Position numbers and translations under genes: made by a program. Shown piece after piece: positions 4,280-45,214 of a DNA stretch of 64,000 nt. The stretch is from an uncultured virus (IMG/VR IMGVR_UViG_3300032288_003839) (lineage: Duplodnaviria > Heunggongvirae > Uroviricota > Caudoviricetes). Numbering within the stretch: the stretch's first letter is position 1; every line of letters starts with the position of its first letter. The stretch lies in the IMG/VR virus record IMGVR_UViG_3300032288_003839; one strand, given 5' to 3'. Under the pieces are notes generated by a model. It was not told where the DNA came from, did no database searches, and worked only from the letters and a program-made list of their open reading frames with translations.

Positions 4280-4346
4280 TAATTAGCATAATTATATTTT
4301 ATCTTGTATATATTAATTAACTATAATGCTTTTTAATAAAAGAAAT

Positions 4347-10423: not shown

Positions 10424-11620
10424 ATGAAAGAAAATCTAATTAATTTTATTCAACAAAAGTCACCAGGTGCTATTCCACTACTTATTGTAATAAGAGGATC
10501 ACATGCTTATGGAACTAATGTTGAAACTTCAGATACTGATTACTCTGGTATATTTGTTCAATCAGAAGATGATATACTGGGAAACAAATATCTTGAACAA
10601 ATAAATGATGATAAGAATGATACTGTTATTTATGAAGTCCGTAGATTTCTAGAACTTGTTTCTAAAAATAATCCAACTGTTCTTGAACTACTTAATACAC
10701 CAGAAGATTGTATTCTATATAAAGATCCTGCTTTTGATATAATTCTAAAGAATAGAGATAAATTTATTACTAAAATTTGTGCTAATTCTTTTGGAGGGTA
10801 TGCTAAAATGCAAATTCAAAAAGCTAAAGGACAAAATAAAAAACAAAACTGGGAAAAAGATAAAGTAACTCGTAAAGATGTACTTGACTTTGTTTATGTC
10901 ATTGAAGGTGAAAAGTCTATTCCTTGGAAAGTTTGGAACACAAGTGAAAATGAAACTGTTTATGAGGAAAAATTCTGTGGTATTGTAAATGTTCCAAATG
11001 CTAGAGATGTTTATGCTGTTTATTATGATGGTATTGCTAGGAATATGTTTTCTGAGAATGTTTCAGAATCTACTAGAATTACTCTGATTAATTTTCAAAA
11101 AGAATCTGGAAAACCGATGGGATTTGGTTACAAAGGATTAGTTAAATCTGGAGAAGGTGTTAGTTCATCAGAGTCAAATGCTCTTAGACTTTCTTCTATT
11201 CCAAAAGGAGAAACTCCAATTTGTAATATTGTTTACAACAAAGATGGATACACTCAACATTGTAATGATTATAAATCTTATCAAACTTGGATAAATGAAA
11301 GAAATGAAGCTCGTTGGGTAGATGTAAAATCTCACGGTCAAAAAATTGACGGTAAGAATATGATGCACTGTAAAAGACTAATGGAAATGTCTAGGGAAAT
11401 TGCAGAAGGAAAAGGAATTATTGTTCGTAGACCAAATGCTAAAGAACTTATTTCTATTAGAAAAGGTGAAATTGATCTACAAACTCTGATTGATTCAGTT
11501 GAATCAGAAATTGTAGAAATTGATAAACTTTTTGCTAATTCATCACTACCAGATAGTGTAGATAACAATTATATACACGAATTAATTGTTAAAATAAGAA
11601 AACAATTATATAATAAATAA
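10424..11620 (+). CDS. Pol-beta superfamily nucleotidyltransferase (RlaP/YcgL-like)
   Basis: GSHAYG...SDTDY motif; C-terminal KNMMHC.RL...ELISIRKG. Confidence 0.8.
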   Translation: MKENLINFIQQKSPGAIPLLIVIRGSHAYGTNVETSDTDYSGIFVQSEDDILGNKYLEQINDDKNDTVIYEVRRFLELVSKNNPTVLELLNTPEDCILYKDPAFDIILKNRDKFITKICANSFGGYAKMQIQKAKGQNKKQNWEKDKVTRKDVLDFVYVIEGEKSIPWKVWNTSENETVYEEKFCGIVNVPNARDVYAVYYDGIARNMFSENVSESTRITLINFQKESGKPMGFGYKGLVKSGEGVSSSESNALRLSSIPKGETPICNIVYNKDGYTQHCNDYKSYQTWINERNEARWVDVKSHGQKIDGKNMMHCKRLMEMSREIAEGKGIIVRRPNAKELISIRKGEIDLQTLIDSVESEIVEIDKLFANSSLPDSVDNNYIHELIVKIRKQLYNK

Positions 11621-19570: not shown

Positions 19571-20725
19571 ATGATACATAATTTTAATAAGTTTATTAAT
19601 GAAGAATTGAGACTGGATAAGTTAGATGATAAATCTCTTAATCAGTTAAAGCTAAATTTAATGGATAGATTATCAGAATACAGAACTTATATTCTAAATA
19701 ATATAGTCTATAACATGTCTACTAATAAAGTAGAATATAAAGACTTTGAAAATGTAGATATCACAACAATTTTAAGAGAACTTAAAAATGAATTTACAGA
19801 TGAGGTTGTTCAAGATATGAACATAGAAACATTTTTAAGAAAGTTAAATCAAATATTAGATCTTAAAAAGAGAAATACAAAGCGTAGAGTAAGAGAAGAG
19901 TTTGATGAATATTATAATTCAATTGAACAAAGAATTTCTAAAATCTCAAGAGGAGAAGCTGAAGAACATTTTGATGCTATTGAAGGAGAAGATTCTTTAA
20001 TTACAAGAAAACAATATGAAACTGAAAAGTTTGGACTACAAGTTGAATTATTAAAACTACAAGAATGGGTAGTTAAGAATAAAAAGAAAGTAGCTATTGT
20101 ATTTGAAGGAAGAGATGCTGCTGGTAAAGGATCAACTATTAAAAGATTTACAGAATATTTAAATCCAAGAGGATTTAAGATTGTTGCACTTGGATTACCA
20201 ACTGATGAAGAAAAGAAAAACTGGTTTGCTAGATATGAAAAACACATGCCTCAACCAGGTGAAATAGTTTTCTTTGACCGTTCTTGGTATAATAGAGCTG
20301 TTGTGGAACCAGCTATGGGTTACTGCACAGAAGAACAATATAATGATTTTATGGAGAATGTTCTAGATTGGGAAGAACACTTAATGAATGATGAAGATAT
20401 TATTTTAATTAAGTTTTGGTTCTCTATTACTAAAGAAAAACAAGCTTTAAGATTTGATTTAAGAAAATCTAGTCCATTAAAGTATTGGAAGTTTTCTCCA
20501 AATGATGCCAAAGTAATTGACAAATGGGATATTATTGGAAAATATAAAAACCAAATGTTTAGTAAAACTGCCAATTCAAATTCACCTTGGGTTATAGTTA
20601 ATTCAAATGATAAAAAGATAGGTAGATTAAATGCTATTAGATATGTTTTATCACAAATTGGTTATGATGGTAAAAATGAAGAAGCTGGAAACTATTATCC
20701 AGAGGTAATAAATGTAATAAAGTAA
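19571..20725 (+). CDS. ppk2: Polyphosphate kinase 2 with N-terminal extension
   Basis: FEGRDAAGKGSTIKR; FDRSWYNRAVVEP; KFWFSI; WKFSPND. Confidence 0.92.
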   Translation: MIHNFNKFINEELRLDKLDDKSLNQLKLNLMDRLSEYRTYILNNIVYNMSTNKVEYKDFENVDITTILRELKNEFTDEVVQDMNIETFLRKLNQILDLKKRNTKRRVREEFDEYYNSIEQRISKISRGEAEEHFDAIEGEDSLITRKQYETEKFGLQVELLKLQEWVVKNKKKVAIVFEGRDAAGKGSTIKRFTEYLNPRGFKIVALGLPTDEEKKNWFARYEKHMPQPGEIVFFDRSWYNRAVVEPAMGYCTEEQYNDFMENVLDWEEHLMNDEDIILIKFWFSITKEKQALRFDLRKSSPLKYWKFSPNDAKVIDKWDIIGKYKNQMFSKTANSNSPWVIVNSNDKKIGRLNAIRYVLSQIGYDGKNEEAGNYYPEVINVIK

Positions 20726-21940: not shown

Positions 21941-21971
21941 AAAAAGACCTCTCAAATTGAGAGGTCTTTTT
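21941..21971 (+). terminator. Intrinsic terminator
   Basis: aaaaagacctctcaa-a-ttgagaggtcttttt. Confidence 0.85.
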
Positions 21972-24499: not shown

Positions 24500-24847
24500 A
24501 TGAATTTGTCCTTTATATTTATAAGCATAATACCAATATCAATAGTTGTCTATCTATTTGTTAAAAAGTATCTAAATAACAGAAAGAGAGAAGAACAATT
24601 AGATATAATAGACCACTGGTCTGAATTTAGTCAAACACTAGTAAACTGGGGAGAAGAAATATCAGATATACATGTAAAACATGAGTATATACACTTTTGT
24701 GCATCTGAAATGTCAAAAAAATTTAGTTATAATAATGAACACCGTGAAAATAAAATAAGACAAGAAGTGATTGATAAGTTTATCAATTATATACCTTCAC
24801 TTAGACAAGAAGTAAGAGAAGAAAAAATAAACAAAATATTAAAATAA
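24500..24847 (+). CDS. Membrane-anchored hypothetical protein
   Basis: ATG 24500 lies 3 nt after TATATTTG; N-terminal TM; C-terminal REEKINKILK. Confidence 0.6.
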   Translation: MNLSFIFISIIPISIVVYLFVKKYLNNRKREEQLDIIDHWSEFSQTLVNWGEEISDIHVKHEYIHFCASEMSKKFSYNNEHRENKIRQEVIDKFINYIPSLRQEVREEKINKILK

Positions 24848-25740
24848 TGGAAAATAACTATCCTATCGGTGCCCTTTGTGGAAGATTTCAAGTTCATGAA
24901 TTGCACCAAGCACATCGTTACATCATTGACCAAGTAGTTGATAACCACAAAAAAGTTATTTTATTCCTTGGTGTTACTAAAACAGCAGGTACTAAAAAGA
25001 ATCCTCTTGATTTTGAAACAAGAAAAAGAATGATTCAAAAACACTACCCTGATATTACAATTATATCACTACCAGACTTCGGTGATGATAAAAGATGGTC
25101 ACAAGAAATGGATAAAAGAATCAGGGAGATATATCCAGTTGGTGATGTTTTAATGTATGGTGGTAGAGATTCATTTATTCCTTATTATAAAAACGGTGGT
25201 GGTCAATTTCATTGTAAGGAATTAGAACAACACACCTTTGTTTCAGGAACTGAGGTTAGAAAAATTGTTTCTGAGCAAGTAAAAGATTCATCAGACTTTA
25301 GAGCTGGTGTTATTTATCAATCATATAATCAATTTCCTAAAGTACATCCTTGTGTAGATATTGTTCCATTTAATGAAGATGGTACTAAAATTCTTCTAGC
25401 TAGAAAACCTAATGAAGACGGATGGAGATTTATTGGTGGATTTGCTAATCCAAATGACCAATCATATGAAATGACTGCTAAAAGAAAACTTAGAGAAGAA
25501 GCAGGACCAATTGAAGTTGGTGATGTTAGATATGTTACATCACTTAAAGTAGATGATTGGAGATACCGTTCAGAAGAAGATAAAATACTTACAATACTAT
25601 TTAAGTGTAAATATGTATTTGGATCCATAGAACCATCACAAGAAATATCAGAGTTAAAATGGTTTGATTTAAAATTATTTAATAAAAATGATATGGTTAT
25701 TGAACACAAAGAATTAATTGAAATATTAAAAAATATATGA
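24847..25740 (+). CDS. nadM: Bifunctional NMN adenylyltransferase / Nudix (NadM-Nudix, NatV-like)
   Basis: GRFQ..LHQAH, KNPLDFETR and SGTEVR in the N-domain; GGF...LREEAG Nudix C-domain. Confidence 0.88.
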   Translation: MENNYPIGALCGRFQVHELHQAHRYIIDQVVDNHKKVILFLGVTKTAGTKKNPLDFETRKRMIQKHYPDITIISLPDFGDDKRWSQEMDKRIREIYPVGDVLMYGGRDSFIPYYKNGGGQFHCKELEQHTFVSGTEVRKIVSEQVKDSSDFRAGVIYQSYNQFPKVHPCVDIVPFNEDGTKILLARKPNEDGWRFIGGFANPNDQSYEMTAKRKLREEAGPIEVGDVRYVTSLKVDDWRYRSEEDKILTILFKCKYVFGSIEPSQEISELKWFDLKLFNKNDMVIEHKELIEILKNI

Positions 25741-26819
25741 ATATAAACACATCCCCTGTTACATACTCTTCCATTGTTCAAATTGGAGAGATGGCTACAA
25801 AATTAGAAAAAGAAACCAGTGACAAATATCTAAAACTTCATAGAGGAGTTATGGATGTCACAACAATTGAATTAAATACAATCTCTCAAAAGATTGATTT
25901 TAATAGTAAAAAAATACAACAATATGGTGGAAATGATGGCGACACACAACTAGTGGAAACTATAAAAGATAAGTTCCATCTTAAAGACCATTATGTAATG
26001 ACTGTTCCAGGTGGGATGGCTGCTCTTGATTTAGTAATAAACTCACTATCAGATAAAACATTTTGGATTCCTAAATACCATTGGGGTTCTTGGAATAAAA
26101 TTCTCACCATTCACGGTAAAGAAATCAAAACATTTAATGACTTTGATATCAGAAATGTTGAAGTTGGTGAGGGTGTTGTAATGTTATGTTATCCTTCAAA
26201 TCCCACAGGATATGCTCCTAAATTTGAAGACTTAAAAGCATTTGCTGATGTTTGTAGAGAAAGAGGGCAAACTCTTATCTTAGACTTGCCTTACTACTAT
26301 CTATTCAATGATATGTCTAATAACATATATGAACTTTATTCAGATAATGTAATAATTATCTCATCATTTTCTAAATCAATTGGACTATCCGGATTAAGAA
26401 TTGGATACATTGGGACTAAAAATAAAGAGTTATATGACACTATGAAGATTAGATCTTTATATAAGTATAATTCTATATCAACCGTACCACAAAGTATCAT
26501 AAATGACCTATTAACAACAAATGAGGGTATTGAATCACTTAATGATTATAAGAAAGTAACGAAGGATCACATAACAAAAAATATTCAATACTTATCTGAG
26601 AATGGATTACTATTTGATGAATATACAGATATTCCAGTAGGACCATTTGCAATTGTTAATAAAAACTTTGATGAATTATTGAAATATAAGATAACAAGTG
26701 TTCCCCTAAATAAATTCACTTTTAATAATAAGGAAGAAAAGTTAAAAGATGTATCAAGAATTTCAGTGGCGGTAGACCACAATTTATTTGTAGAATATTT
26801 CAATAGAATTGAAAAATAG
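25737..26819 (+). CDS. PLP-dependent aminotransferase class I/II
   Basis: PSNPTG; ILDLPY; SFSKSIGLSGLRIGY containing the PLP lysine. Confidence 0.85.
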   Translation: MNINTSPVTYSSIVQIGEMATKLEKETSDKYLKLHRGVMDVTTIELNTISQKIDFNSKKIQQYGGNDGDTQLVETIKDKFHLKDHYVMTVPGGMAALDLVINSLSDKTFWIPKYHWGSWNKILTIHGKEIKTFNDFDIRNVEVGEGVVMLCYPSNPTGYAPKFEDLKAFADVCRERGQTLILDLPYYYLFNDMSNNIYELYSDNVIIISSFSKSIGLSGLRIGYIGTKNKELYDTMKIRSLYKYNSISTVPQSIINDLLTTNEGIESLNDYKKVTKDHITKNIQYLSENGLLFDEYTDIPVGPFAIVNKNFDELLKYKITSVPLNKFTFNNKEEKLKDVSRISVAVDHNLFVEYFNRIEK

Positions 26820-26856
26820 TCCGTATATTTGTATATTAAAATAAAAAATAAATAAT

Positions 26857-28287
26857 ATGTTTAACGACAACATTTTAACACTGACTGACAGTTACAAATC
26901 CACACACTGGAAGCAGTATCCGAAAGGAACGACAAAAGTTTACTCTTATCTTGAATCAAGAGGTGGTAAATTTGATAACACAATGTTTTATGGTTTACAA
27001 TACTTCATTAAAAACTACTTAACTGGTAGAGTTGTTACTGAAGAAAAAATTACAAAAGCAAAAAAGTTCTGGGACGCACATCTTGGTCACGGCTACTTTA
27101 ATGAAGAAGGATGGCGACATATACTAATCGCACACAACGGACACCTACCCGTTAGGATTAAAGCAGTTCCAGAAGGAACAGTTGTTAAAACAGGAAATGT
27201 TTTAGTTACAGTTGAAAACACTGACCCAGAAGTTCCTTGGTTAACTAACTTTTTAGAAAGTATTTTACTCCAAGTATGGTACCCAATTACAGTTGGTACT
27301 CTTTCAAGAGAAGTTAAGAAAAATCTTATCAACTATCTTAAAAAAACAACCTCTTACAACCCAGAAGAAATTAGTGGCGTAGTGGCTTTCATGTTACATG
27401 ATTTCGGTTTCCGTGGTGTAAGTTCTGTTGAATCATCTGGTTTAGGTGGGTCTGCTCACATCATCAACTTTATGGGAACTGATACAGTACCGGCTATTTT
27501 ATTCGCTCAAGAATATTATAACACTCAAAACACACTGGCCTTCTCAATTCCAGCATCTGAACACTCTACAATCACTTCTTGGGGAGAACCATTTGAAGTT
27601 AAAGCAATGGAAAATATGTTAGACTCATATCCTACCGGTTTAGTGGCTTGTGTATCTGACTCATTTGATATTATCAGAGCTTGTAGAGATTATTGGGGAA
27701 CTACTTTAAGAGATAAGATTTTATCTCGTGATGGTCGTTTAGTAATCCGTCCTGATAGTGGAGATCCAGTTCAAACACTTAAACAAATCTTCCATATCTT
27801 GTGGGATAAGTTTGGTGGAACAATCAATGATAAAGGATTCAAAGTTCTTGACTCTCATATTAGAGTAATTCAAGGTGATGGTGTAAACTTTGAATCAATT
27901 TCAGATATCTGTAATATGATGATTGAAGAAGGATTCTCAGTTGAGAATATCGCATTTGGTATGGGTGGTGCTCTTTTACAAAAAGTAGATAGAGATACTC
28001 AGAAATTCGCCTTCAAATGTTCTTCTATTACTATTAATGGTGAAGAAGCTGAAGTCCGTAAAAATCCAATTGAGATTAATGAGAAAGGTGAAAGAGTACA
28101 ATCTTTCAAAAAGTCAAAAGCTGGTCGTTTGAAGTTAGTAAATGGTCAAACCGTTGAACACTCACATGATGAAGTTGGCGATGAATTAGTTGAGGTATTC
28201 TTCAATGGTAAAATTACTAAAGAATGGTCATTTGAAGAGGTTAGAGAAAGAGCTCAAGTGAATATTCAAATTGAAGAAATGGTCTAA
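26857..28287 (+). CDS. nadV: Nicotinamide phosphoribosyltransferase
   Basis: TDSYK.TH..QYP; LHDFGFRG; PASEHS; RPDSGDP; IQGDG; FGMGG.LLQ..RDT. Confidence 0.95.
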   Translation: MFNDNILTLTDSYKSTHWKQYPKGTTKVYSYLESRGGKFDNTMFYGLQYFIKNYLTGRVVTEEKITKAKKFWDAHLGHGYFNEEGWRHILIAHNGHLPVRIKAVPEGTVVKTGNVLVTVENTDPEVPWLTNFLESILLQVWYPITVGTLSREVKKNLINYLKKTTSYNPEEISGVVAFMLHDFGFRGVSSVESSGLGGSAHIINFMGTDTVPAILFAQEYYNTQNTLAFSIPASEHSTITSWGEPFEVKAMENMLDSYPTGLVACVSDSFDIIRACRDYWGTTLRDKILSRDGRLVIRPDSGDPVQTLKQIFHILWDKFGGTINDKGFKVLDSHIRVIQGDGVNFESISDICNMMIEEGFSVENIAFGMGGALLQKVDRDTQKFAFKCSSITINGEEAEVRKNPIEINEKGERVQSFKKSKAGRLKLVNGQTVEHSHDEVGDELVEVFFNGKITKEWSFEEVRERAQVNIQIEEMV

Positions 28288-28290
28288 ACT

Positions 28291-28322
28291 AAAAACCCTC
28301 TGAAAAATCAGAGGGTTTTTTT
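28291..28322. terminator. Bidirectional intrinsic terminator
   Basis: aaaaaccctctga-aaaa-tcagagggttttt between convergent genes. Confidence 0.85.
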
Positions 28323-30928: not shown

Positions 30929-31274
30929 AAAAGAAAGAGTAAGTTTAAATAGAGCTAAAAGAAGATCAGTTTGGTTATTTTTATTTTTAATGTTCTCACT
31001 TTACTGGATTAAAAATTTATATGAAGATATAGACTATATTAGAATAGATAAGTCATTCACACAGATTTCAATTAATGCTAAAGATAGCATTATAAATACC
31101 TTACATAAAAAGATAGATTCTCTTAAATTAGAACTAAGTAAACCTGTAGAAGTTGTTCCTCCTCCAAAACCAAAATGGGTTAAAAAGGACACATCACATG
31201 TTGATACTTTGAAAGTCAAATTAAAAGTAGATACTGTTGAATTAAAAACAGATACTTTAAATCCCTCAAATTAG
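30921..31274 (+). CDS. Membrane-anchored protein
   Basis: Basic N-terminus, TM helix, short coiled coil, PPPKP and repeated DS/DT motifs. Confidence 0.6.
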   Translation: MNRKERVSLNRAKRRSVWLFLFLMFSLYWIKNLYEDIDYIRIDKSFTQISINAKDSIINTLHKKIDSLKLELSKPVEVVPPPKPKWVKKDTSHVDTLKVKLKVDTVELKTDTLNPSN

Positions 31275-31285
31275 AGGGATTTTTT
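31261..31285 (+). terminator. Intrinsic terminator
   Basis: atccctc-aaatta-gagggat followed by a T-run. Confidence 0.75.
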
Positions 31286-31348
31286 ATTTTAAATCATTAA
31301 ACTTTTTTAAATGAGTGATATACAAATCATGATTTTTGTTAAATTTAA

Positions 31349-31861
31349 ATGAAAGAAAAAAGAAAACACAGAATAAACGGAGAAGTCCGCTTTCCTCAAG
31401 TTAGAGTTATTGGTGACGGTGAACCAAAATTAATGAGTTCATATGACGCTTTTCAATTAGCACAATCCCAAAATAAAGATCTCATTTTGATAAATGAGAA
31501 TCAAACAATACCTATTGTTAAAATTGAAGAGTATAATAAGTTTCTTTATACCTTAGAAAAATCTGAGAAGGAAAAGAAAAAGAACTCATCTAAGTCAGTT
31601 ACTAAAGAAATTCAATTAAGTCCCGAAATATCTGACCATGACCTCGGAACCAAATCTAGAAAAAGTAAAGAGTTTTTAGAAGATGGTAATAAGGTTAAAG
31701 TTGTCCTACAACTAAAAGGCAGACAGAAGGCAACTCCTGAAAGAGGTCAAATAGTTATGCTTAAATTTGTTACATTAGTTGAAGAACTTGGTGTCGCTGA
31801 AAGTCTTCCTAAATTAGAAGGAAGTAAATGGCATATGATTATAAAACCAAAGAAGAAGTAG
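31349..31861 (+). CDS. infC: Translation initiation factor IF-3
   Basis: HRINGEVRFPQVRVI; KEIQLSPEISDHDL.TK; FLEDGNKVKV.L..KGRQ. Confidence 0.92.
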   Translation: MKEKRKHRINGEVRFPQVRVIGDGEPKLMSSYDAFQLAQSQNKDLILINENQTIPIVKIEEYNKFLYTLEKSEKEKKKNSSKSVTKEIQLSPEISDHDLGTKSRKSKEFLEDGNKVKVVLQLKGRQKATPERGQIVMLKFVTLVEELGVAESLPKLEGSKWHMIIKPKKK

Positions 31862-32624
31862 ATTTTATAAAAGTCCAATAGTAGTCTTTTGATTCTCCCT
31901 TTTCAAAATATATCATAATCATCCTATGTGTTTTATTGGTAAATAAAATAACTTCATTTGTGTTGTTAAATTCAAAGACCTCTCCAGTCTTTTTAGAAAT
32001 AGCTTTTATATACTTATATTTAATCTTCTTCTCACTTAACTTTTTTATTACATCATCTCTTACCTCTTTTTTTCCTTTATTCCACGGATCTCTTCCTATA
32101 TTTTTTAATCTAACCTTTTCAGAAACATCTGGATTGTGCATTGGATTATTCAATTTAAGTCTATCTGATATTTTTTTCTTAGTGGATTCTTTTAATTTTT
32201 TCCCCCAATTTGGATGTCTATCTCCTTTAAGTGACATCTTATATCTTGATTTTTTAGAATGAACTAATCCAGTTACTCCCTCTCCACCATTAACTAAGTT
32301 AACAAGAGGTCCTTTACTATCAATTCTTTTACCTATCTTATTAATTAATAGTATTTCTTTATCAAATGACTCTTGTTCAGTTAGATTTTCATATAATTTA
32401 AAAACAATAGGATCATATCCTGATTTTATAATTTTATTTATCCTATTTGACATAAAGTTTTTTTTCTTTAATTTATAATCTTTCATGTGAATAGTATCTC
32501 TACTGTTATGTCCCTTTTCTATATAGAAAGGCTCATATAAAAAAGAAAAATTCAAACCATCATAATAATATGAACCTTTCTTTGATGGGTCCATATAAAC
32601 ATATACATAAAATTTATTTTCCAT
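31839..32624 (-). mobile_element. Free-standing GIY-YIG homing endonuclease with NUMOD3-like repeats
   Basis: FYVYVY...PFYIEKG..R; E..LI..IG....GPLVN...GGEG; HSKKSRYKMS, HPNWGKKLKESTKKKIS and PWNKGK motifs. Confidence 0.8.
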
Positions 32625-32720
32625 ATATTATATATTAAATTATCATAACTCCCTACAACTAATAAGTTATTTTTATAAACTTTTAATAAATAAAATGATA
32701 AAACAATTAATATAGCAAAC

Positions 32721-34188
32721 ATGACAAAACAAGAAAAAATAGAAAAAATAGAGTCATTAAAAAAAAGAGCTAGTGAGCTGAAGAAGGAAGTTGATTATTT
32801 CAACGCTCTTCAGCTTGCTGGATAACCCCCTCTGATTTATCAGAGGGGGTAAATGAGCACTTAAATTAGTACTTAATGGTTCTTATGGAGCATTCGCTAC
32901 GTCCTACTTCATATTATATAATAACCATGTAGCAGGAACAATCACTGCTCAAGGCCGTGACCTTACAAAAACAATGGATAAGGTTAATGAAGACTATTGG
33001 TATAACCAATGGCAGAATGACCACGAGCTTCATTATAAAATGGGTATTAAGAACATAACACCTATTTCAAAAGATGAACCAGTTTCTATTTATGCTGACA
33101 CCGATTCATTATTTGTTTCATTCAAACCAGCAGTAGACCATTGTGATTGGTTGAATTTAGTATTCAATGATGAATTTCTTAATTCAATGGATAAAAAGTT
33201 TATTATACTTTCTAAAGAACTTCCAAAGTTCAATAATACTAACTGTGTAGGAACTGCACATAATATTAAAGAGTTTACCGACTTATTGAGTACAGAACAT
33301 GAATTGGTTTTAATATGTGGTAACTTTGTTAAAGATAGAGAGTTAGTAAAGATGATTAAGTCTGGTTCTGTAAAGAATGAGATAAAATGGAACTGGTCTA
33401 ATGAAATAGATTTCATACAAGGATTAGACCATTATAGATATGGTGGTTACTTTAAAAAGTGTTTAGAGGATTATGCTGGATCATTTGGTGTGGAAAACAA
33501 AGAAGACTTTGAGTTAGAAAGAATATCAGAATCTATTATCAATATTGCTAAAAAGAAATACATTCAACATATTTTATTTGAAGATGGTATTCCGTATGAT
33601 AGATTGAGTTATATTTATCCTAAAGGTGTAGAACTTGTTAGGTCATCTACTCCAGCATTTGCTAGAGATAAAATTGTAGGAATTGTTAAATATCTATTTA
33701 CACATCCAGATACTTTTAATATCAAAGACTTACTAAAATTAGTAAAAGGTTTAAGAAAAGAATTTGAATTGGCTGATATAGATGATATTTGTATGCAATC
33801 TTCTGTTTCTAATTATGAAACAAAAGTTCTTAATGACAAATCATTGCCTTTAGGATTTATAAGTGGTGCTCACTTCGCGGTTAAGTCAGCTGCACATCAC
33901 AACTTTCTTTTATCAAAAAGTAAAGAGTATCAACAAAAATATGAATTCATTAAATCAGGTCACAAGATTAAATACTATTGTTGTAAAGATAAATCAGTAA
34001 CTGATATGTTTGCTTATACACGCGGCTCTTTTCCAGTAGAGTTTGCTCCTCCTATAGACTATGATGAACAGTTCGCTAAATCTATCTTGTCTCCTATCAA
34101 TTCAATTATTGAACCATTAGGAATGCCTGAGATTACTAAAAGGTTGTCAGTTGTGATGGATATTTTTGGGGGTAAAGGAGGTTTCTAA
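32721..34188 (+). CDS. Family B DNA polymerase, C-terminal subunit (fingers-palm-thumb), interrupted by a 40-nt insert; predicted 475 aa if the insert is skipped
   Basis: 32721-32819 encodes MTKQ...YFNALQLA. 32860 onward (+1 frame) encodes LKLVLNGSYGAF...ITAQGR...YADTDS...KKKY...KGVELVRSSTP. No exonuclease domain or motif A. Confidence 0.85.
32820..32859 (+). other. 40-nt non-coding insert with a perfect hairpin inside polymerase motif B (candidate ribosomal bypass element)
   Basis: GGA TAA, then accccctctga-ttta-tcagagggggt, then AAATGA GCA; both relevant frames are blocked by stops. Confidence 0.7.
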
Positions 34189-34991
34189 TCCTCTTTATAA
34201 ACAAAATTCTTATCAGGTATTAAATAGTAATTAACACCATTCTCATCTAATTGAGTTTTAATATCTTTTCCTTTGAATATCCAATTACCTAATTTCTTAT
34301 TTGTATCAGATATTAAAACTAAATAATGTGTTTTGATTTCTGTGAAATATCCACTTATATAAACTTTATAAAAATCATCTTCTTTAGTAATTGAAGAAAG
34401 TGTTTTTGTTTGTATAGTATAAGTACTTCCTTTATAATTAAAAGTACCATCAATACCAGCAATATCAACTTTATGAGAAGATGGTTTATCAATTGATATA
34501 TCTGTTTTAAGTATTTGAGATGCAAATTTAGAGAAGAATGTATTTGCTATTTCTTCTTGTGATTGACCTTTATCTGAAGCTCCTTCTAAAATTTTATAGA
34601 TTCTTTCAAACCACTTACCACCAGGTTCAAATAGTTTGAACTTATTAGTCTCGATCCAATCAATCATACCATCAGGTGTTGAGAATGTAGGTCTACCATT
34701 ATCTATTTCATTAGCAATTCTAATCATCTCCCAAAGTATTGCAATATTCTTTTGGGCTTTTGTTAATAACTCAGCTCTAACTTCTCTTCCTTTATGAATT
34801 AGAATTTCATTACCTCTGAAATTACCATAGATTTCTTTTAATATTCTTCTAATAGCTAACTCTTTTTTCTCTGCTTTTTCTTCAGTGAATAAGATAGGTT
34901 TACCAGCTATAAACAACTTAACTGGTTTATATGAAGCTTTATATTTATCATTATAAGCTTCTTTTATAAAGTTTGAGTAATTTTTAATCAT
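34185..34991 (-). CDS. Hypothetical protein with possible PD-(D/E)xK-like C-domain
   Basis: DIAGIDG...IQTK; N-terminus MIKNYSNFIKE. Confidence 0.55.
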   Translation of the reverse strand: MIKNYSNFIKEAYNDKYKASYKPVKLFIAGKPILFTEEKAEKKELAIRRILKEIYGNFRGNEILIHKGREVRAELLTKAQKNIAILWEMIRIANEIDNGRPTFSTPDGMIDWIETNKFKLFEPGGKWFERIYKILEGASDKGQSQEEIANTFFSKFASQILKTDISIDKPSSHKVDIAGIDGTFNYKGSTYTIQTKTLSSITKEDDFYKVYISGYFTEIKTHYLVLISDTNKKLGNWIFKGKDIKTQLDENGVNYYLIPDKNFVYKED

Positions 34992-36199: not shown

Positions 36200-36793
36200 A
36201 TGATTAAAAGATATGACGCTTTTGTTAAAGGTAAAGTAAATGAAGAGTTCATAATGGCTGAACCTAAAACAAGTCCAAGTACTCCTGAGGTTGCACCAGG
36301 AACAACTGAGAAACCAGGCACAATGCCTCAACCTCCAAGTCCAATTAGAAGAGAAAGAATTTCTCCAGTTCCAGCTCCAGCTAAAATGGAAGTTGAAATG
36401 GAAAATGAACCAATGGAAGAAGAAGGTAGTGAATATATGGGTGGACAAATGTTACAAAATTTAGCTGATGCTTTAGGAACAGAAGTTGTTGATAACTCAG
36501 TTGAATATAATGGTAAAAAGATTAACTTCTACTCAGAAACAGAAATGTTTCACGTTGATAAAAAGAAATTCAAAACTGTTGAAGAAGTTGTTGATTACTT
36601 AGAATCTAGTGCACCTGCTGAAGAAACTGAAGTAAAAGATCATTCTCCTTCAAAAGAAGACATGGATGAATTAATGGCAGCTCATGATGAAGATGATTTC
36701 ATTAAAGATGAAGAAGAGGAAGAAGAAAAATTTGAATCTAAGAGTTACAAATCAACAAGAAAGTTTGAAAGTTTTAAGAATAAAAAGAAATAA
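36200..36793 (+). CDS. Acidic/Pro-rich protein (possible head scaffold or internal protein)
   Basis: MIKRYDAF..KVNEE start; KFES repeats at the C-terminus. Confidence 0.55.
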   Translation: MIKRYDAFVKGKVNEEFIMAEPKTSPSTPEVAPGTTEKPGTMPQPPSPIRRERISPVPAPAKMEVEMENEPMEEEGSEYMGGQMLQNLADALGTEVVDNSVEYNGKKINFYSETEMFHVDKKKFKTVEEVVDYLESSAPAEETEVKDHSPSKEDMDELMAAHDEDDFIKDEEEEEEKFESKSYKSTRKFESFKNKKK

Positions 36794-36826
36794 AAAAAAC
36801 CCACTCAATTGAGTGGGTTTTTTTTT
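36793..36826. terminator. Bidirectional intrinsic terminator
   Basis: A-run, cccactcaattgagtggg palindrome, T-run. Confidence 0.85.
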
Positions 36827-44499: not shown

Positions 44500-45165
44500 A
44501 TGAAAAAGTTTTCTAAATTAATAACCGAATCAAAAAAAGAATTATGGACTAAACACCCATTAGTCAATCCTGTTGACTGGGAAGAAATATTCAAACCTCT
44601 TATTGAACATATTGATTCTAACTTAAAGACAAATGTTCCACCACCAGGTGAGGGTATATTTAGTAGTAATACAAAAGTCGCACTGGATGAGTTAATAGAT
44701 GCAATGACAGAAGATTATGTTGAGTATTATACTAATGTGATTGATGATGGTTCACAGGAATCATTCTTTAGTGCGTATGATATAAAAGTATCTTATAATG
44801 ATATTATGGATTGCATTCAACCTATTTTAGACCAAACAAATGAGGTTGAGGATTATCCACAATGGGATGGTGGCTATCTTTACCTAAGTGCTAAAAAATT
44901 GAACTATAGAAGTTTAGAAGAATTTATAGAAGATATAGAGGATATTCATCTAAAGTTAAAAATGTTGAATGTAGACTACACAATAAGAATACATACTGAT
45001 AATACAGATGTGAATCTAATAAAAACATCTACAGGTATAACTAAGAAGATAAAAGATGTAACTGATTTACCTGGATCATCTTCCGAGAAGGCGGTTAAAT
45101 CAATTAAGTCAGTTTCAATTTTCATTTATAATAAAGATACTGTTCAAGTCGGAGACTTAGACTAA
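44500..45165 (+). CDS. Hypothetical protein
   Basis: Start MKKFSKLITE; TATATA 4 nt upstream. Confidence 0.65.
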   Translation: MKKFSKLITESKKELWTKHPLVNPVDWEEIFKPLIEHIDSNLKTNVPPPGEGIFSSNTKVALDELIDAMTEDYVEYYTNVIDDGSQESFFSAYDIKVSYNDIMDCIQPILDQTNEVEDYPQWDGGYLYLSAKKLNYRSLEEFIEDIEDIHLKLKMLNVDYTIRIHTDNTDVNLIKTSTGITKKIKDVTDLPGSSSEKAVKSIKSVSIFIYNKDTVQVGDLD

Positions 45166-45166
45166 T

Positions 45167-45192
45167 AAAAAAACCCACTAAAAAGTGGGTTT
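45167..45192. terminator. Intrinsic terminator
   Basis: aaacccact-aaaa-agtgggttt between convergent genes. Confidence 0.7.
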
Positions 45193-45214
45193 AATTTTTT
45201 GCAGAAAAATCTAA

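Follow-up and report, generated by a model that had tools for sequence, protein, structure and literature searches.

To our knowledge, programmed ribosomal hopping over tens of nucleotides in bacteria and phages has been demonstrated at the bench for phage T4 gene 60 only. Short GC-rich hairpin inserts known as byps are scattered over many genes in the AT-rich coding DNA of Magnusiomyces capitatus mitochondria. T-even phages possess the Seg enzymes, free-standing and intron-less GIY-YIG endonucleases encoded between conserved genes, and split gp43A/gp43B polymerases are said to have been described by Petrov et al. in T4-like Aeromonas phages. Here, we analyzed a 64-kb stretch of huge-phage-type DNA, AT-rich (~28% GC), from an uncultured virus (IMG/VR record IMGVR_UViG_3300032288_003839); this whole stretch is called the window. 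In it, polB-C, the gene for the back half of a family B DNA polymerase, is interrupted in motif B by an untranslatable 40-nt insert, and a free-standing homing-endonuclease gene lies directly upstream in the divergent orientation. We favor, with moderate confidence, the reading that this locus is a selfish cassette at the 5' end of the split polB-C gene, made of three parts: 1) an endonuclease slot between infC and polB-C; 2) a 5' coding tract with a 15-bp stem-loop; and 3) a 40-nt gap in motif B, consisting of a stop codon and a hairpin and flanked by the Ala codons GCT and GCA.

The closest described system is the T4 gene 39/mobA/gene 60 region. The available part of a survey of this region (10.1101/2022.08.31.505936) reports that the nuclease is accompanied by a diverged N-terminal tract and by a bypass cassette with matched codons, and that it has in some cases been lost or replaced by GIY-YIG or VSR enzymes. 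The same part of the source terms the cassette unique and exclusive to topoisomerase genes, and its text does not contain the word 'polymerase'. A full-text literature search, with preprint supplements outside its scope, found no paper on bypassing in phage polymerases. As far as the available part of the survey describes gene 60 and its 50-nt bypass, the window is similar in that an essential replication gene holds, close to its 5' end, a short gap that cannot be translated and that adjoins a homing endonuclease. Matched take-off and landing codons, a 5' stem-loop and a diverged coding tract between nuclease and gap are also common to both, as is, according to that same part, a nuclease that frequently disappears, decays or gives way to another family without loss of the gap. 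A stop or poorly decoded codon right behind take-off may be a further likeness, the TAA of the window being the second codon after GCT. By contrast, the gap is hosted here by polB motif B and there by the large topoisomerase II subunit (Topo2L), and the nucleases found here (GIY-YIG in the window, HNH-like/DUF7487 in relatives) are unrelated to MobA. The polB-C nuclease is divergent from its presumed target gene rather than placed between the halves of a split gene. Furthermore, the polB gap is 36-48 nt long with a 10-11-bp GC hairpin starting 6 nt after take-off, and it occupies at least six insertion sites within 12 codons. When compared with the T4 cassette as a class, the locus lacked MobA/gene 60 homology and the T4 host gene, and it possessed matched codons and a 5' stem-loop. 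The polB system shares the logic of the T4 cassette but not its components.

The hairpin gap in motif B and the 5' stem-loop

The insert (32820-32859, plus strand) is composed of GGA, a TAA stop (32823-32825), a 10-bp GC hairpin (32826-32849), TAAATGA and GCA (32857-32859). It is placed between the codons for QLA and for LKLVLNGSYG (motif B), 196 nt from the nuclease ATG. The original prediction, made from the letters of the window alone, had located a 40-nt insert about 200 nt away from the nuclease in a conserved polymerase motif, and this is borne out. In-silico removal of the 40 nt restored an uninterrupted motif as in two phage records (L001 and L002), where polB-C is an unbroken 474-aa ORF reading ...YYNALQLALKLVLNGSYGAF... 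In the window, the 5' tract comprises the first 33 codons of polB-C, ending with QLA (32721-32819, plus strand). The remainder of the gene (32860-34188, plus strand) runs from motif B via YADTDS to the stop and matches Pfam DNA_pol_B with an E value of 4.6e-15. The last codon before the insert, GCT (Ala, 32817-32819, plus strand), is the proposed take-off codon. It is synonymous with the last triplet of the insert, GCA (Ala, plus strand), which is the proposed landing codon.

Translation in the incoming frame would end at TAA 32823. In the outgoing frame there are stops at 32833 and 32854, and its first start codon, ATG 32974, lies beyond motif B. A single frameshift was ruled out by the incoming-frame stop together with the outgoing-frame stop at 32833. 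Internal restart was ruled out by the position of the first outgoing start codon, and stop-codon recoding by the 40-nt length, which shifts the reading frame. With regard to a Shine-Dalgarno-like element as in the T4 bypass, a run of GGGGG ends 7 nt before the landing codon, but it is inside the hairpin stem. With regard to a nascent-peptide signal, the 33-aa leader before the gap was found to be conserved in insert-less relatives too. After the gap, dN/dS was 0.044-0.055 at a dS of ~0.5 when the window was compared with L003, L004 and L005. Strong purifying selection acts on the frame after the gap, which argues that polB-C is expressed. The insert itself is identical at 40 of 40 nucleotides in the window, L003 and L004, although the backbone dS is 0.51-0.55.

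To place the insert among relatives, viral contigs were scanned for polB-C, yielding 70 loci with 55-96% amino-acid identity. Loci with no 5' end (L008, L018 and L033) were left out and loci with identical junctions were merged. The remaining viral-contig loci, the two phage records L001 and L002, and the window made up 51 groups. A GC-hairpin insert of 36-48 nt was found within 12 codons of motif B in 33 of these groups, and its removal restored the conserved peptide in every one. The other 18 groups have no insert, and the window insert is without counterpart in them. Six insert junctions were distinguished: A|L, L|K, V|L, G|S, S|Y and Y|G. The codon that precedes the insert is synonymous with the insert's final triplet in 24 of the 33 insert groups (CTT/CTA in 12; GCT/GCA and GCT/GCT in 3 each; GGT/GGT in 2; GTT/GTA, GTT/GTT, TCT/TCA and CTC/CTA in 1 each). 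The change is NNT to NNA in 17 of these 24 pairs and the reverse in none. A stop codon occurs within two codons after take-off in 27/33 groups, as the first codon in 4 and as the second in 23, the latter including the window with GCT GGA TAA. The hairpin begins 6 nt after the take-off codon in nearly all groups. One metagenome contig (L155, 1-320, minus strand of the locus) carries two tandem hairpin gaps in motif B, one at A|L (GCG...GCT) and one at Y|G.

A dispersed mobile palindrome of the byp, GC cluster or MITE type was also considered and rejected. The C5...G5 hairpin is present in a single copy in the window, and in five related phage records the in-gene C5...G5 hairpins are confined to polB, the other two being terminator-like and located at gene ends. 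Like byps, the polB gaps possess matched take-off and landing triplets with tolerated deviations, and non-decodable codons after take-off. Unlike byps, in-gene hairpins were found here in polB motif B only, and they show linkage to endonuclease genes. As a separate observation, intergenic terminator-like hairpins, with an A-run, CCCTCTGA...TCAGAGGG and a T-run, occur in the window at 28291-28320, 21941-21971, 36792-36825 and 45164-45199. They resemble the stem of the gap hairpin, and the gaps may derive from terminator hairpins of this type.

Upstream of the gap, and including the take-off codon, the 5' tract can form a stem-loop (32770-32821, plus strand) with a 15-bp outer stem pairing 32770-32784 with 32807-32821. 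The predicted fold of the window 5' stem-loop together with the gap hairpin reached -48.5 kcal/mol, with a z score of -7.6. Across 20 loci with 5'-site inserts, this outer stem (helix 1) had 75.8% of its cells paired, and the figure for all 20 pairs of the tested structure was 73.4%, compared with 31-42% when the partner was slid. Changes on both sides were seen for 8 of these 20 pairs, 7 belonging to helix 1, a number reached in 0 of 500 shuffles. In 18 insert-less loci helix 1 was paired in 43.3% of cells, and pairing over the whole structure was no better than in shuffles. The 5' folding energies were -22 kcal/mol in 5'-site insert groups and -7 kcal/mol in insert-less groups (p 1.8e-4 and 1.5e-6), and no 5' folding-energy difference was seen for the Y|G groups. 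The 5' stem-loop therefore covaries in 5'-site gap loci, the window included, and insert-less loci lack it.

The endonuclease slot and the recombining tract

A divergent endonuclease-like gene lies directly upstream of polB-C in 22 of the 33 insert groups and in 1 of the 18 insert-less groups (Fisher p 2.2e-5, a test that ignores phylogeny). All 22 genes are on the minus strand and end 10-97 nt before polB-C. Twenty of them belong to one HNH-like/DUF7487 family of 269-389 aa, and the other two, those of L047 and the window, are GIY-YIG genes. Members of the HNH-like family possess an N-terminal Cys cluster, DUF7487 repeats and an invariant C-terminal DHK...NLC...N (19 aligned; the L004 copy is partial). 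The family matches PHROG homing endonuclease (E 3.5e-13) and endonuclease VII (E 7e-5), and a comparison of its profile with solved structures gave no credible match. All 19 aligned HNH-like genes adjoin a gap. Among insert-less groups only L042 carries such a nuclease; L001 and L050 have unrelated small divergent ORFs without a family match. The nuclease subfamily also goes with the insertion site, since 12 of 13 long forms are found at the 5' sites (A|L, L|K or V|L) and 6 of 7 short forms at the 3' sites (G|S, S|Y or Y|G; p 0.0012). The polymerase-backbone tree requires at least 14 changes of insert state and at least 15 of nuclease state. An early reading, based on tblastn with the GIY-YIG protein, held nuclease and insert to be unlinked, as L042-44 showed no insert and L047 showed one. 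It was overturned by the other nuclease families in the same slot.

In the window the slot is occupied by a free-standing GIY-YIG/NUMOD3 homing-endonuclease gene of 261 aa (31839-32624, minus strand). Its ORF matches Pfam LEM-3_GIY-YIG (PF22945) with an E value of 5.7e-9 and 36.6 bits (cut-off 27), and the DNA-binding module NUMOD3 (PF07460) with an E value of 5.3e-5 and 23.5 bits (cut-off 20.4). Its family profile matches the solved GIY-YIG proteins 9u75 and 9u7u. The nuclease ATG ends at 32624 and the polB-C ATG is at 32721, leaving 96 nt between the two divergent genes. At the other end, the last 23 nt of infC overlap the 3' end of the nuclease gene. The divergent arrangement at 96 nt, the overlap with infC and an own TTAATATATA sequence had all been part of the original prediction, and each agrees with the Pfam matches and coordinates obtained here. 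An exact copy of TTAATATATA (32629-32638, minus strand) is located 4 nt upstream of the nuclease ATG, although its promoter role is putative.

The module bounded by blastn break points at 31867 and 32706 (31868-32705, no strand assigned) is swappable. On the infC side, homology with L003 and L005 ends at 31867. It starts again at 32706, 15 nt short of the polB-C ATG, and the swapped segment therefore excludes the insert. L003 and L004 hold an HNH-like/DUF7487 gene (375 aa) in the slot instead of the GIY-YIG gene, and the module is absent from L005. The GIY-YIG module brings its own TTAATATATA motif, and the same motif is found upstream of the L003 nuclease gene. Nuclease presence or absence takes the form of a clean indel between conserved genes (the window against L003 and L005; for the HNH-like gene, L012 against L011 and L014). 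The window nuclease resembles Seg enzymes in being an intron-less GIY-YIG gene between conserved genes, with its own gene-start motif and a clean indel in relatives, and it would likewise be expected to cut a neighboring gene and co-convert the flanks. It differs from Seg in that a coding gap in the neighboring gene accompanies it, an unrelated nuclease family uses the same slot, and Glu stands in for the YIG glycine. It was also observed that two unrelated nuclease ORFs (window 31839-31867; L003:154-180) run into the 3' end of infC antisense and both end in ...STSSLV; it is therefore the flank, rather than the mobile module, that provides the last nuclease codons.

The substituted glycine was examined in an alignment of 42 sequences. 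A search for homologues of the nuclease returned 151 at E <= 1e-5, the closest of which (P0001-P0024) are 60-89% identical. Residues Y6, Y8, Y10, Y34, R42, H46, E90 and N109 are present in the window and conserved in 41-42 of the 42 sequences. At position 36, however, the window alone has E: its YIG motif reads FYIEKG, with the codon GAA (32517-32519, minus strand), and the 41 aligned homologues have G. The solved protein 9u75 aligns FYVGKG at this position. A literature search for mutational data on the YIG glycine gave nothing useful. The window enzyme is probably weakened or dead through G36E at a near-invariant glycine. In L155, a GIY-YIG relative (73% identical) has its frame broken near residues 24-28, inside the catalytic domain, though on this short contig the break is possibly a sequencing error. 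The reading of FYIEKG in place of YIGKG thus holds. The decay proposed from it is compatible with a substitution unique among 42 sequences and with an apparently frameshifted relative, the loss of activity itself being predicted from the residue. A GIY-YIG profile scan of viral contigs kept 80 loci, of which only L075-77 were close (54-55%). These three are the contigs of L042, L043 and L047, and the others are distant GIY-YIG genes. In a metagenome scan with the GIY-YIG protein, 5 loci were obtained and L155 alone was informative.

Between slot and gap, the 5' tract behaved differently from the polymerase backbone. In comparisons of the window with L003 and L004, the 5' 99 nt were 95-97% identical, and 9-10% of backbone sites differed. 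L005, with a backbone just as close, lacks a nuclease and carries another insert, at Y|G; its 5' tract is 73% identical to that of the window. Between L004 and L005, differences were counted at 16/1165 positions in the backbone, 28/99 in the 5' tract and 6/36 in motif B (p 8e-24). L012 and L011 gave the same pattern of local replacement (p 1e-8), and four insert-less pairs showed no excess in 5' tract or motif B (p 0.28-1.0). The nearest neighbors of 5' tracts also disagree with those of the backbone, with 95% against 82% for L014-L024 and 94% against 72% for L067-L051. The 5' 99 nt and the gap behave as a recombining tract that is exchanged between polymerase backbones.

A proposed selfish cassette and competing explanations

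In the proposed cassette, the slot endonuclease would cut conserved motif-B DNA of gap-less co-infecting relatives. Repair from the donor would then copy the nuclease gene, the 5' tract and the gap together, and the gap, by breaking up the target site, would make its carrier immune. During translation, peptidyl-tRNA-Ala would leave GCU when the GC hairpin reaches the mRNA entrance and would re-pair at GCA, so that the hopped product would hold the junction peptide ...NALQLALKLVLNGSYG... (QLALKLV). The usual occupant of the slot would be the HNH-like/DUF7487 enzyme, replaced in the window by GIY-YIG/NUMOD3 as a secondary occupant. We infer that motif-B DNA is the nuclease target and the gap its protection because the insertions cluster in 36 nt, synonymous change is in excess there and nucleases flank them. 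The cleavage site, the immunity, the hop and the loss of nuclease activity are all deduced from sequence comparison.

Several observations weigh against this cassette reading. Eleven of the 33 insert groups have no nuclease, and one of four GIY-YIG contexts (L042-44) has no insert. Seven well-supported independent pairs gave about 3 changing the same way, 0 the opposite way and 4 with no difference (median p 0.25), the comparison being underpowered. The nucleases are far more diverged than the cassettes: in L067/L051, 62% identity between nuclease proteins contrasts with 94% between 5'-tract DNA, and nuclease and gap are therefore not strictly co-inherited. The nuclease is not located between the two polymerase halves; in relatives the exonuclease half lies ~100 kb off. 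A target common to GIY-YIG and HNH-like enzymes is putative, as are cleavage and hopping themselves. Finally, the 9 Y|G-site groups (L005, L012-L014, L019, L024, L034, L039 and L064, at the motif-B junction of that name) are without a matched landing codon or a 5' stem (p 0.27), with TAA, AGC, AAC, CAA or GAC at the Tyr landing position. Given these groups, one mechanism may not cover all gaps, and Y|G gaps may be decoded differently from 5'-site gaps.

The most probable of the alternatives, which we still regard as unlikely, denies any functional link. The slot would be a hot spot for endonucleases cutting elsewhere, and the gap would be kept for other reasons, such as throttling polymerase synthesis. 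The nuclease-free insert groups, the non-significant result of the independent pairs and the presence of two unrelated nuclease families in the same slot are what such a view would lead one to expect. Against it stand the strong association of 22/33 against 1/18, the correspondence of subfamily and site, the adjacency of every aligned HNH-like gene to a gap and the excess synonymous divergence, which is centered on motif B only in pairs that involve a gap.

A stricter version of the cassette holds that the window GIY-YIG enzyme is the gap's own partner, that the gap guards against that one enzyme and that both spread as a fixed unit. Gaps do occur in three of the four GIY-YIG contexts (the window, L047 and L155), and the geometry matches that of T4 mobA/gene 60 in the available part of the survey (10.1101/2022.08.31.505936). 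Nevertheless, the identical gap stands beside an unrelated nuclease in L003 and L004, the swap boundaries leave the gap outside the module, L042-44 carry the GIY-YIG gene without a gap, and the gap sites differ among GIY-YIG contexts (A|L; L|K; A|L plus Y|G). We consider this version improbable, and the role of the GIY-YIG enzyme as partner of the window gap is putative. These results bear on the original prediction that nuclease and insert spread together and would co-occur across related genomes. At the family level the association and the exchange of 5' tract plus gap uphold it, whereas insert groups without nuclease and a nuclease context without insert limit the co-occurrence, and L003/L004 and the swap bounds oppose a fixed unit in the window. 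The idea is right in spirit for the family and too strong for the nuclease-insert pair of the window.

Removal at the RNA level, by cutting the 40 nt at the hairpin base and ligating the ends with no hopping, appears about as improbable as the strict version. In its favor, the two ends of the near-palindromic insert pair with each other (arms 32816-32836 and 32839-32859, 81% complementary), the window encodes an RNA-repair-associated protein of the RlaP family, and matching codons are missing from the Y|G-site groups. It offers no account, however, of take-off and landing codons that are synonymous without being identical, always in the direction NNT to NNA, of stops close behind take-off or of the constant 6-nt spacer in nearly all groups. 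Codon pairs, stop and spacer are each meaningful for decoding and meaningless for splicing. The insert also has no counterpart in Rfam, a search of 31000-34500 having returned two chance-level matches only, both away from it. On the gap features, ribosome hopping is a better fit than RNA excision.

That polB-C is a pseudogene or the insert an assembly artefact, as the stops in both frames inside the insert, the lack of a start before ATG 32974 and hence of any collinear translation could suggest, is extremely improbable in view of the low dN/dS downstream, the same 40 nt in two independent contigs, and inserts above intact downstream frames in 33 groups from many samples. The feature is real and not due to chance.

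Neighboring genes and the place of the proposed cassette in huge phages

The left flank of the slot is infC (31349-31861, plus strand), which encodes IF-3 and matches Pfam IF3_N and IF3_C. A phage IF-3 gene directly upstream of polB-C was also seen in many relatives (L005, L009-L011, L014, L015, L045 and L054). A DNA search of phage records matched the window or this region to only 4 uncultured phages of 634-735 kb. No match to the exonuclease half of the polymerase was found within the window. In two relatives it is a separate 515-aa ORF ~100 kb from polB-C (L160, which is LR745206, at ~233 kb; G002 at ~172 kb). As with gp43A/gp43B, the front and back parts of the polymerase are encoded by two separate genes, and mobile elements have invaded the region. 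Unlike gp43A/gp43B, the halves are ~100 kb apart in relatives, and the back half carries an extra coding gap. Larger insertions were observed at motif C of polB-C (YADTDS, residue ~82 of the 442-aa post-gap segment), measuring ~500 nt in L030-L032 and L050 and ~1.6 kb in L035, L046, L049 and L069-L071. In L050 an ORF open for 641 aa suggests an intein, and the insertions of all the other loci may be introns or nuclease genes.

The TTAATATATA sequence occurs in 17 exact copies in the window against 2.13 expected, and 17 copies were reached in 0 of 100 shuffles. The copies include those at 4307, 10358, 16799, 18195, 18632, 36159, 43023, 44486, 48940, 50988, 56673, 57171 and 61724. By our own reading, 14 of the 17 share the orientation of an ORF whose start lies no more than 40 nt downstream. 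Because these copies closely precede ORF starts, TTAATATATA can be regarded as a recurrent gene-start motif and as a candidate phage promoter or start-site motif. Auxiliary genes of huge-phage type are located at 10424-11620, 19571-20725 and 24847-28287 (RlaP RNA-repair-associated nucleotidyltransferase, PPK2, NUDIX, aminotransferase and NAMPT/NAPRTase). A tRNA scan of the window found no tRNA genes.

Taken jointly, the observations give roughly even chances that huge phages carry a second family of endonuclease-linked ribosome-hop cassettes, one that does not match the T4 gene 60 family. As parts of this joint reading, and at the same even level of confidence, such a cassette would combine an interchangeable HNH-like/GIY-YIG slot with a 5' tract whose stem-loop drives the hop and a GC-hairpin gap, and it would move horizontally between polymerase backbones. 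Gap position in motif B and nuclease subfamily would covary, since it is the gap that would confer immunity at the target of that nuclease. In the NNU to NNA pairs, the first codon would allow release through weak wobble and the second capture through Watson-Crick pairing, both with one and the same U34 tRNA.

Gap-bearing essential polymerases of this kind will be annotated as broken by gene callers. If the reading is true, the second family would comprise dozens of natural variants, with at least six insertion sites, two architectures (one having the 5' stem and matched codons, the other lacking them) and one tandem-gap contig. Comparison among such varied cases would allow the rules that govern take-off, landing and hairpin-driven hopping to be tested, and it would provide a test of the idea that coding gaps evolve as immunity against homing endonucleases.

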